Shown in pieces: positions 1 to 3,000 of a stretch of 64,000 nt of DNA (the first letter of the stretch is position 1; each line of letters opens with the position of its first letter). The stretch is from a virus (Duplodnaviria > Heunggongvirae > Uroviricota > Caudoviricetes), in the IMG/VR virus record IMGVR_UViG_2630968933_000007, positions 32,001-96,000 of that record; one strand, written 5' to 3'. Position numbers: made by a program.

Positions 1-3000
1 TCCGAAAGCAGGGAGCCGTCAGGTGCAGGATGAACTGCGGGCATGGTCTGAAGAAGTGGCTGCAGGGGCGCTTGAACGGTTGTTCATGCAGACCGGGGTT
101 TCATGGTCAGACCCGTCGCGCGCACAGTATTTCTCTGTGCTGTTTTCTGAGGGTATCCGTCGGGCATATCGCGACACACTGGCGACAAGTCCGTACTCCT
201 CATACCGCAATCCTGTCCGCAGACAAAGGTTTTACTGATGACGACGATTACTGAAATCATCGGACGAGTGAACACGCAACTGGTTGACCCGATGATGGTG
301 CGCTGGCCTCTGGCTGAGCTGTGTGATTATTACAATGATGCTGTGCGGGCGGTGATTCTGGCAAGGCCGGATGCAGGCGCAAGTCTGGAGACGCTGAATT
401 GTGTTCCTGGTGCACGTCAGACTTTGCCTGATGGCGCAATACAGCTTCTTGACGTGATATGTCTCAGCGATGGTAGTGCTATAAAACCGCAATCCCGTGA
501 GGTGCTTGATGCACAGTATCCCGACTGGCACATGCTGAGGGGGAAACCGGAATGCTTTATCAGCAGTGACCTTGCCCCGCGCGTGTTCTGGCTGTTTCCG
601 GCACCGGAGGAGGCTGTGAGTGTTGATGCTGTGGTCAGCCGCATTCCGGAGGCGGTGTATGTTCTGACGCAGGATGATGACACGCCTGTACCGCTGGAAG
701 AGGCTTATGTTAACCCGCTGGTTGACTGGATGTTGTTTCGTGCATTCAGCAAGGATGCAGCCGGTGGTGCAGAGTCAGGACTGGCAGCACAACATTATCA
801 GAGTTTTGTTGAGCAGCTCGGGATTAAACAGGGTGCAGACAGTGCATTGTCTGCCCGCAAGAAGGTGTTTAACGGAGGTGGAATGTGAGTGTTGTTGTTT
901 CGGGGACGCTGAAATCTCCTGATGGTGAGGCAATATCAGGCGCAAATATTACCCTGACGGCGCTGACAGTTTCACCGGATGCGCTCAGCGGCACCAGTGC
1001 GTCAGCAGTGACCCGTGAAGGTGGATATTACGGAATGACGCTGGAGCCGGGGGAGTATGCGGTTTCTGTGACGGTGAAAGGGAAGACTGCTGTCTACGGA
1101 CGTGTGCGTATTGAGGGGACTGAAAGTACGGTGACGCTCAATATGCTGTTACGCCGCAGTCTTGTTGAGGTGAGCATACCCGGAGAACTGCTGACAGATT
1201 TCCGGCAGATACAGAACAATGTGGCGGATGACCTTGCCACGATTCGTCGTCTGAACGAAGACACGGCGGTGAAAAATAATCAGGCTTCACAGTCGAAGGA
1301 AAGCGCTGCTGCCAGTGCGAAGACTGCATCAGAAAGCGCGAAGGCTGCGACCAGCAAAGCGACGGAGTCTGCACAAAAAGCCAGTGAGGCTGCAGAGGCG
1401 GCGACCCGGGCAGGTGAGTCTGAAAAGGCAGCGGCAGCTGACGCTAAAGAGGCCAGACGACATGCTGAAACCGCCAGAGTGGCTCAGGAGGCCGCCGGAG
1501 ACGTTCTTAAACGTGCTGAGGCTGCTACGGTTAGTGCTGAAGAAGCCAGACGTATGGCTGAGAATGCACGAGGACCTAAAGGCGATACAGGGCCGAAAGG
1601 TGATGCTGGTCCTCGTGGTGAAACAGGTCCGGCGGGTCCGCGTGGGGAGAAAGGTGAGCAGGGAGAGCGCGGACCTCAGGGCATACCGGGCCAGAAAGGT
1701 GATACAGGAGAACGGGGACCTCAGGGAGTGCAGGGGCCAGCTGGCGCAACAGGGCCATCTGGCCCACGTGGTGCGACCGGGCCACAGGGAGCAATGGGGC
1801 CGCGTGGTGAAACCGGGGCCAGAGGCGAAAAAGGAGACCCGGGGGGGCCTCAGGGACCAAAGGGGGATACTGGTCCGAGAGGTGAGCCGGGGCCGGCAGG
1901 AGCAAAGGGAGAGCGCGGTGAGACCGGACCTGCGGGGCCGAAAGGGGAACCCGGGGAACGTGGTCCGCAAGGATTACAGGGCCCCGCCGGAGAGAGAGGT
2001 GAACCGGGTCCGGCAGGTCCGAAAGGTGAACGAGGCGAAGCTGGACCTCAGGGACCTCGTGGGGAGCCAGGCCCGGCGGGCAGCGCAGCAAATGTGGCAG
2101 ATGCGACGACGGCACAGAAGGGAATTGTGCAGTTAAGCAGCGCAACGGACAGTGATGATGAAACGAAGGCAGCCACACCGAAAGCTGTGAAGGCGGCAAT
2201 GGATGAGGCCAGGGCAGCGAAACAGAAGGCAGAAGAGGTTGCGACAACCCGCCCGTCGGGAGAAAGCATACCTGGACCGAAAGGTGACAGGGGCGAGCAA
2301 GGACTGGCAGGTCCCACAGGTCCGAAAGGTGAGCGCGGTGAACCCGGACCTCAGGGGCCTGCAGGACAGAAAGGTGAGCAGGGCCTCCGTGGGCTGCAGG
2401 GGGCGACAGGACCTGCGGGAGCAGTGGGGCCCGCAGGCCCACGGGGACCGGACCCCGGGGTCAAAAAGGTGATACAGGACCTGCAGGTCCGCAGGGACCA
2501 GCTGGCCCGGCAGGCCCACAGGGGGTTGCCGGAAGGGACGGCAATGTTTCCACCGGGAAATATGCGGTTGGTTCTTATGTTTTTGGCGTGTCCTCTGTCT
2601 ATGCTGACGGCGAAGGCTTATTTTCATCAGGGATATATGAAAACATTCAGGGTAGCTCCATTGATCTGATTTCAATACAGACAACACAAACAGGCGCATC
2701 AACACCAAATCAAATCTGGTTTTTGAAACTGGAGGAGGACATTCCGGGGGTGTGGCGGGCATTTAAACCCGCCGCATATATTGATCTGATGCCAGAAGGA
2801 ATGCAAGGAGGAAAGAACTCGATGTTTAACTTTATTACTCTTTTCCAGCGGATAGCGTAACGAGGTACGGCATGATAATAGCGATCAGTGCGGTTAAGGA
2901 TCCGGTATATACCAGGCAGGGATGTATCAACTGTCTGGTGAAACTCACCGGAGTTGACGAGGAGGAGACGGACTGGCTTCCGTTTACGGCGACACCAACG

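Follow-up and report, generated by a model that had tools for sequence, protein, structure and literature searches.

The collagen-like tail-fibre gene that falls into two reading frames in the window, by which we mean the whole 64,000-nt stretch of the caudoviricete record IMGVR_UViG_2630968933_000007 that was analysed (positions 32,001 to 96,000 of that record), most probably owes its frame break to the assembly of a draft genome, and the break would then not be a property of the organism. Judged from sequence comparisons, this reading is given a probability of roughly 0.88. That the strain's own finished genome carries an unbroken copy of the gene argues that the lesion is not real. An earlier note on this DNA had left three explanations side by side, namely an assembly error in a repetitive GC-rich region, a true frameshift and a slippage-prone sequence; the first is retained here, while the homologues lend no support to the other two.

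The fibre gene as it stands in the window

The gene spans 885-2860, a length of 1976 nt that leaves a remainder of 2 on division by three. Upstream lies a head-tail adaptor gene, labelled 'phage adaptor / DUF6682' in RefSeq, and downstream a gene for a DUF4376 protein, followed in turn by a gene for a YadA-anchor protein. The assignment to the collagen-like phage tail fibres, already made in the earlier note, is borne out by the Pfam families Collagen, Phage_fiber_2 and phage_tail_N and by the best PHROG match, 366 'tail fiber'. Four collagen stretches are found by Pfam, which has no model for the last ~110 aa of the fibre. The words 'side fibre' and 'assembly gene', used at first for this gene and for the one after it, were loose labels for what would be an essential tail fibre of the Stx-phage family and for the DUF4376 protein.

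The break itself is present as first described. The Gly-X-Y repeats of the frame-0 open reading frame form runs of 30, 27 and 20 triplets, the third of which stops at nt 2453 (...GPAGPRGPD), and the protein is taken up again in frame 2 from nt 2450 to the stop at 2860. Frame 2 is open from nt 2375, so that the two frames overlap over 2375-2669, and the non-collagen C-terminus that follows the frame-2 triplets measures 104 aa. The one-residue interruption in the first collagen-like block sits at a run of seven G residues (1841-1847) and is conserved in all intact homologues, and the PF03406 segment matches the structures 5yvq/8ju3 of the phage Mu tail fibre S. The features are collected in Table 1.

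Table 1. Coordinates in the window of the fibre gene, its neighbours and the segments that bear on the frame break
Feature	Position (nt)	Strand	Basis or remark
Head-tail adaptor gene, 933W L0120 homologue	238-888	+	Pfam PF24175 SU10_adaptor, E = 9e-32; PHROG 399 'structural protein'
Prophage-B-type segment	712-1869		27-mer painting; the contig nevertheless occupies prophage A's chromosomal site
Fibre N-terminal tail-attachment domain	885-1268	+	Pfam CarboxypepD_reg aa 5-86, phage_tail_N aa 1-128; prophage-B alleles
Frame-0 ORF, GTG start	885-2669	+	594 aa; aa 1-522 track the intact fibre, aa 523-594 out of frame
Collagen-like block 1, 30 + 27 Gly-X-Y triplets	1572-2087	+	One-residue interruption (GDPGGPQ) between the runs
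Prophage-A-type segment	1870-3655		27-mer painting; the junction is the sole interruption
Phage tail fibre repeat	2106-2231	+	Pfam PF03406 (Phage_fiber_2), E = 3e-18, aa 408-449
Collagen-like block 2, frame-0 part, 20 triplets	2274-2453	+	Gly-X-Y count
First 26 nt of the 66-nt A/B repeat, kept in the window	2421-2446		Three-way alignment of A, B and window
Junction, single GACCGG copy kept	2446-2451		Alignment to intact alleles
Frame-2 continuation of the same gene	2450-2860	+	11 triplets at 2450-2548, then C-terminal globular domain; stop 2858-2860
90-aa 'stub' ORF, GTG start	2588-2860	+	Reported by gene callers as a separate hypothetical protein
DUF4376 protein gene	2872-3465	+	Pfam PF14301; PHROG 1141

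Intact homologues and known fibre systems

The finished genomes of strain G1/2 and of its sister strains G6/7 and G8 all carry an uninterrupted fibre gene of 2016 nt, and complete E. coli genomes hold intact alleles of 2016, 1905 and 1878 nt. The allele of strain EC2 (1776 nt) is open, yet it is annotated as a pseudogene. The lengths observed are 2016, 1989, 1905, 1878, 1776 and 1701 nt, and all of the natural length variants are in frame. The intact homologues being single ORFs, the two frames of the window belong to one gene, as had been supposed, and window 2450-2860 matches exactly the 3′ end of the unbroken G1/2 gene (2016 nt). The intact allele comprises 92 Gly-X-Y triplets in two shafts parted by the PF03406 repeat, and the real gene encodes a 671-aa tail fibre with an N-terminal attachment domain, a coiled coil, the two shafts and a small C-terminal domain. 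The fibre is presumably trimeric, and its C-terminal domain is presumed to be the receptor-binding part.

The gene is an ordinary member of the known collagen-like fibre family of the Stx-phage type and nothing new in kind. The fibres 933W L0121, Sp5 ORF67/ECs1228 and phi24B gp61 (Sepvirinae) are encoded in the same place, directly after an L0120-like adaptor gene, and are built alike, with an N-domain, a coiled coil, a long collagen-like shaft into which a PF03406/coiled-coil segment is inserted, and a small globular domain at the C-terminus; a homologous N-terminal domain, the position after the adaptor, the interrupted Gly-X-Y shaft and the C-terminal globular domain are all found here too. 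The 5′ part of the window gene shares ~90% nucleotide identity with 933W L0121 and with many Stx phages, and the protein of the intact allele is 68% identical to that of L0121 over residues 1-563, with an unrelated C-terminal domain.

The Sp5 ORF67 protein is located at the tail end, and deletion of its gene abolishes plaque formation and lysogenisation (PMC5155283); phi24B gp61 is a trimer of the same architecture (bioRxiv 10.64898/2026.04.10.717836). By analogy, the window fibre would be the essential tail fibre of this short-tailed Stx-phage family, location at the tip and necessity being known for Sp5 ORF67 only. Two differences stand beside these likenesses: where 933W and Sp5 have L0122/ORF68 after the fibre, the window has the DUF4376 gene instead, and, unlike in Stx phages, there is no stx gene in the part of the prophage that the window covers. 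The same combination of phage-fibre N-domain, Gly-X-Y repeats and Phage_fiber_2 is reported for prophage collagen-like proteins of pathogenic E. coli (Ghosh et al. 2012, PMC3368898); the present gene adds a further allele, carried by a commensal (probiotic) strain.

Nature of the break

Comparison with intact homologous fibre genes, one of the checks proposed at the outset, shows the form of the lesion. Aligned to six intact alleles, the window shows a single 40-nt gap, on either side of which it is 100% identical to G1/2, G6/7 and G8. In the intact gene, the 40-nt segment is flanked by two GACCGG direct repeats that lie 40 nt apart, and across the junction, where one copy is kept, the window reads GCCCACGGGGACCGGACCCCGGGG and likewise GGGGACCGGACCCCGG. 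Because 40 is not divisible by 3, the gene's downstream third is shifted to another frame. The break is thereby located at 2446-2451 and not spread over 2448-2462, where it had first been placed.

A slip of one nucleotide in a C/G homopolymer, a mechanism suggested at first, is at odds with an actual difference of 40 nt. Nor does a 1-nt indel restore the Gly periodicity, as had been envisaged: a 1-nt insertion mends the reading frame and leaves the Gly register broken, the Gly codon at 2445 in frame 0 being 5 and 14 nt away from those at 2450 and 2459 in frame 2, while the register calls for a spacing divisible by 9. Also considered was a tandem duplication of 5 nt (GGACC/GGACC at 2445-2454), removal of one copy of which would give GPRGPRGQKG; it was dropped, since the homologues show a single 40-nt gap.

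The junction was not found in 5426 complete E. coli genomes, GTDB species representatives, JGI metagenomes or IMG/VR, and the two-frame arrangement was seen in no other sequence searched, which speaks against the slippage-prone or programmed shifting that the earlier note had listed.

Source contig and finished genome

Contig JPKH01000024.1 of assembly GCA_000768405.1 is the only one on which the 594-aa product is recorded, and the locus there differs from the window by 0 mismatches in 6669 nt. The JPKH assembly is a draft genome from 2015 of the probiotic E. coli strain G1/2 (Symbioflor-2), produced from Illumina GAIIx reads with Velvet and PCR gap closure (PMC4358396). Window 22550-38344, adjoining ynfF, matches the complete G1/2 genome NZ_CP060083.1 with zero mismatches, so that strain and locus are the same for both; a literature search for a paper on the finished G1/2 genome found none. 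Two 933W-like prophages are present in NZ_CP060083.1, prophage A at 2.55 Mb, adjoining ynfF, with a fibre gene of 2016 nt, and prophage B at 1.49 Mb, adjoining yfdC, with one of 1989 nt, and the fibre genes of both are intact; the finished genomes of G6/7 and G8 show the same. Elsewhere in the window, too, draft and finished genome disagree within prophage DNA only, at 39-42 kb and 46-47 kb.

The contig is chimeric. Painting with 27-mers and three-way alignment of window 1-24500 resolve ~50 alternating segments of A, B and E. coli ED1a-like type, and over window 2944-23195 only 0.7% of the 27-mers are foreign to A, B and ED1a, against 19-39% over a comparable stretch in seven natural relatives and in A, B and ED1a when set against each other. 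The fibre gene is itself a mosaic, with a B-type 5′ end (B-specific 27-mers extend over 712-1529) and A-type sequence from nt 1870 onwards; the A-type 27-mers cover 1870-2425 and 2446-3655, and those that start between, at 2426-2445, belong to the junction and are absent from A, B and ED1a. An A-specific block (2446-3122) covers parts of both the fibre and the DUF4376 genes, and the first ~75 codons of the latter swap between the two prophages together with the fibre C-terminal domain.

Further downstream, a patch of 1.7 kb (3656-5333) is identical to ED1a and absent from the finished G1/2 genome. A third prophage copy in the finished genome was considered as the source of sequence that is neither A nor B and was rejected, as no such copy is present. 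The patch suggests a further sequence source or reference-guided filling, and its occurrence in the draft only makes the finished genome an imperfect proxy for the DNA or the pipeline behind the draft.

The 66-nt repeat and the ends of contigs

The fibre genes of A and B have an exact repeat of 66 nt in common, inside the second collagen block, and what the window lacks is the final 40 nt of this repeat, so that the right edge of the gap coincides with the first A-specific base, nt 2447. The draft of strain G8, made with the same pipeline, has a contig (JPKL01000194.1) that begins at precisely this base, is identical to the window over 722 nt and terminates 46 nt past the last A-specific base. 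Nine other draft assemblies have contig breaks at the edges of the 66-nt repeat, 141-187 nt upstream of the stub ORF. The frequent calling of the 90-aa stub as a separate gene follows from these contig ends. The stub was accordingly discarded as a sign of frameshifted alleles elsewhere, since almost every place inspected was a contig end; one stub locus has an unrelated 1-nt deletion (L015).

Marks of a short-read misassembly are found here: the break falls at the edge of an exact repeat within the genome that exceeds plausible values of k, the contig mixes the copies of the repeat, and other assemblies break at the same point. Drafts with collapsed or chimeric de Bruijn repeats likewise merge multi-copy prophages into one contig that alternates between copies, break or mis-join where exact repeats longer than k end, and differ from finished genomes in repeated DNA only. 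The window departs from such drafts in having junction k-mers that occur in no copy, so that a step after the graph is needed, and in its ED1a-like patch.

How the join may have arisen

In a short-read de Bruijn assembly, the 66-nt repeat shared by A and B would have formed a crossing node that could not be resolved. The A-specific sequence on the left, running 26 nt into the repeat, was then probably joined straight to the first A-specific base on the right, with the loss of 40 nt. A de Bruijn assembler by itself cannot make k-mers that are missing from the reads, and, since the junction 27-mers are missing from A, B and ED1a, an extra step beyond the assembly graph must be postulated. Removal of a gap, merging of contig ends or a PCR artefact during gap closure would each be a candidate for the software or manual step behind the join.

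A Velvet repeat node that was skipped would delete 67-k nt, which by arithmetic only equals 40 at k = 27. This value is doubtful as the Velvet setting: k = 47 is what suits the ends of the G8 contig, and some of the switches between A and B fall between variants less than 21 nt apart. The 6-bp microhomology at the gap is, as a counter-point to an artefact, also typical of a genuine deletion by replication slippage.

Alternative readings

The alternative that survives best, albeit as an unlikely one, is a real 40-bp deletion in the culture behind the 2015 draft, in which slippage between the GACCGG repeats would have truncated the prophage A fibre and left a true pseudogene. Its attraction lies in the 6-bp direct repeats that border the missing segment in the intact allele, in the differing lengths of the collagen repeats among strains, by which recombination or slippage acts on the fibre gene, in the pseudogenes and the IS1 insertion that the finished prophage A already has, and in one or more patches of sequence that are present in the draft and missing from the finished genome. 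The deletion would, however, have to end exactly at the A/B repeat boundary and at the contig terminus of the sister draft, for which random slippage in ~1.1 kb of collagen-coding DNA offers a chance of ~1%, and it would have to have done so on a contig that is demonstrably chimeric around the junction. The out-of-frame product also stands apart from the natural length variants, the junction recurs in none of the other sequences searched, and the three finished genomes, intact at the fibre gene, contradict the inactivated fibre that the earlier note had envisaged. More doubtful still is the extended form of this reading, by which the deletion was truly present in about 2014 in the G1/2 culture, perhaps in a sub-population, and the Gly-X-Y repeats of co-resident fibres constitute a contingency locus; were it true, repeats prone to slippage or recombination would switch an essential fibre off and on.

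The product of such a slippage deletion would stop before the C-terminal receptor-binding domain, analogous to the stf product of lambda PaPa. As cited in PMC12617516, the stf frameshift (orf401/orf314; Hendrix and Duda 1992) is a genuine mutation that became fixed in a laboratory lineage, and phages that carry it have no side fibres and adsorb more slowly. The window gene likewise lies in two frames, so that its fibre would lack the distal receptor-binding part, and, as in a pseudogene of the stf type, the two ORFs are one gene. The resemblance is in appearance only: the finished genomes of this strain and of its two sister strains show one continuous 2016-nt ORF instead of the break, and the break coincides with an assembly repeat boundary.

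Ribosomal slippage, a programmed or tolerated -1 shift that would join the frames and still yield a full-length fibre, is highly improbable: the CAAAAAG within the overlap (C-AAA-AAG, 2462-2468) resembles the slippery motif A-AAA-AAG of E. coli, but this heptamer begins with C and not with A, the intact alleles read the same bases as GGT CAA AAA GGT (G-Q-K-G) in one frame, so that the motif is not selected for slippage, all homologues are single-frame with no conserved pairing of a two-frame arrangement and a slippery site, the product would break the Gly-X-Y register twice, and an assembly artefact explains the break best. No better founded is the division into two natural genes, a fibre without a C-terminus of its own and a small ORF for the C-terminal domain, after the manner of Sp5 ORF67/ORF68: gene callers list the 90-aa stub as a 'hypothetical protein' of its own on ~20 contigs, and in Sp5 the fibre gene is followed by a small ORF for a fibre C-terminus (PMC5155283), but the stub stands apart only where a contig starts inside the collagen repeat and the upstream bases continue Gly-X-Y in frame, the C-terminal domain lacks similarity to 933W L0121, L0122 and L0123, and every complete homologue is one ORF, which refutes this reading and, with it, the naturally separate genes that had been named as a possible outcome. 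The stub was rejected, likewise for want of similarity, as a homologue of the small ORF that follows the fibre gene in 933W and Sp5.

Implications

The practical bearing is on data quality: contig JPKH01000024.1 is a patchwork of two or three prophages, and inferences from its prophage genes would be unsafe, including calls of pseudogenes, of fibre alleles and of the YadA-like adhesin allele. As the case illustrates, contig ends and small deletions at the boundaries of collagen repeats are a recurrent short-read artefact in the prophage fibre genes of E. coli. The biological weight of the break itself is small: it concerns a fibre gene of a known family, which in the real genome is intact.

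Composition of the draft sequence

Sequence of a type found in the prophage of Escherichia coli ED1a, the third source in the 27-mer painting of window positions 1–24500, occurs in the draft at two places. The larger is a 1.7-kb patch in which every 27-mer is present in the ED1a prophage (CU928162.2); the YadA-like gene encodes a 359-aa YadA-anchor protein identical to its ED1a counterpart. Window positions 4300–4940 have no counterpart in the finished G1/2 genome, where the best match reaches 21% coverage at 74%. A lost third prophage, contamination and reference-guided filling are all candidate origins of the ED1a-identical patch. 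The second is a short cluster of ED1a-type alleles inside the giant LPD38 gene, followed by 15 27-mers absent from prophages A and B and from ED1a; among complete E. coli genomes, window 17270–17450 has no match above 97.2%.

In the finished genome, prophage A carries an IS1 insertion, and its capsid and LPD38 genes are flagged as frameshifted. Neither the insertion nor these frameshift-flagged genes occur in the window, because it follows prophage B in that region, and the draft therefore gives prophage A a more intact look than its true state.

A Qin-like lambdoid prophage with dicB, relBE, hokD and csp genes is located after rspB. All mismatches (172/172) and gaps (12/12) between draft and finished genome over positions 37344–64000 cluster at 39000–42000 and 46000–47000, with the exonuclease gene as their main site, which suggests further copy mixing. 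Two single-base differences and one 1-nt deletion are found only in the draft; prophages A and B and ED1a agree with one another at all three positions, and these changes are likely draft errors.

Coordinates of the features discussed
Feature	Window	Other locus
G7 run, collagen block 1	1841–1847
Fibre C-terminal domain and DUF4376 gene start	2446–3122
ED1a-identical patch	3656–5333
YadA-like gene	4273–5352
Region of the prophage A lesions in the finished genome	9460–10231	L018 (compared locus) 12760–13457
Draft-only differences	10689, 11095, 21497
ED1a-type allele cluster	17304–17407
Qin-like prophage	39000–42000, 46000–47000
Fibre allele, strain EC2		L004 1501–3276
1-nt deletion, draft GCA_026356415.1		L015 nt ~115

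Fibre alleles and exchange of the fibre tip

In another draft assembly, GCA_026356415.1, the C-terminal collagen stretch of the fibre gene is also split, by a 1-nt deletion (GGCCCACAG to GGCCACAG) that may be genuine or an error. The fibre allele of strain EC2 is marked as an incomplete pseudogene by RefSeq and translates as a single open frame of 1776 nt; the flag is probably an annotation effect of a shorter collagen block. Within collagen block 1, the G7 run codes for GDPGGPQ, a one-residue break of the Gly-X-Y register, and since all intact homologues keep this interruption, it is a natural kink rather than a second frame problem.

A single block covers the C-terminal domain of the fibre together with the opening ~75 codons of the downstream DUF4376 gene; it is entirely different between prophages A and B, with similarity resuming at window position 3123. 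The two parts are exchanged together, a pattern expected of a fibre tip and its specific partner or chaperone.
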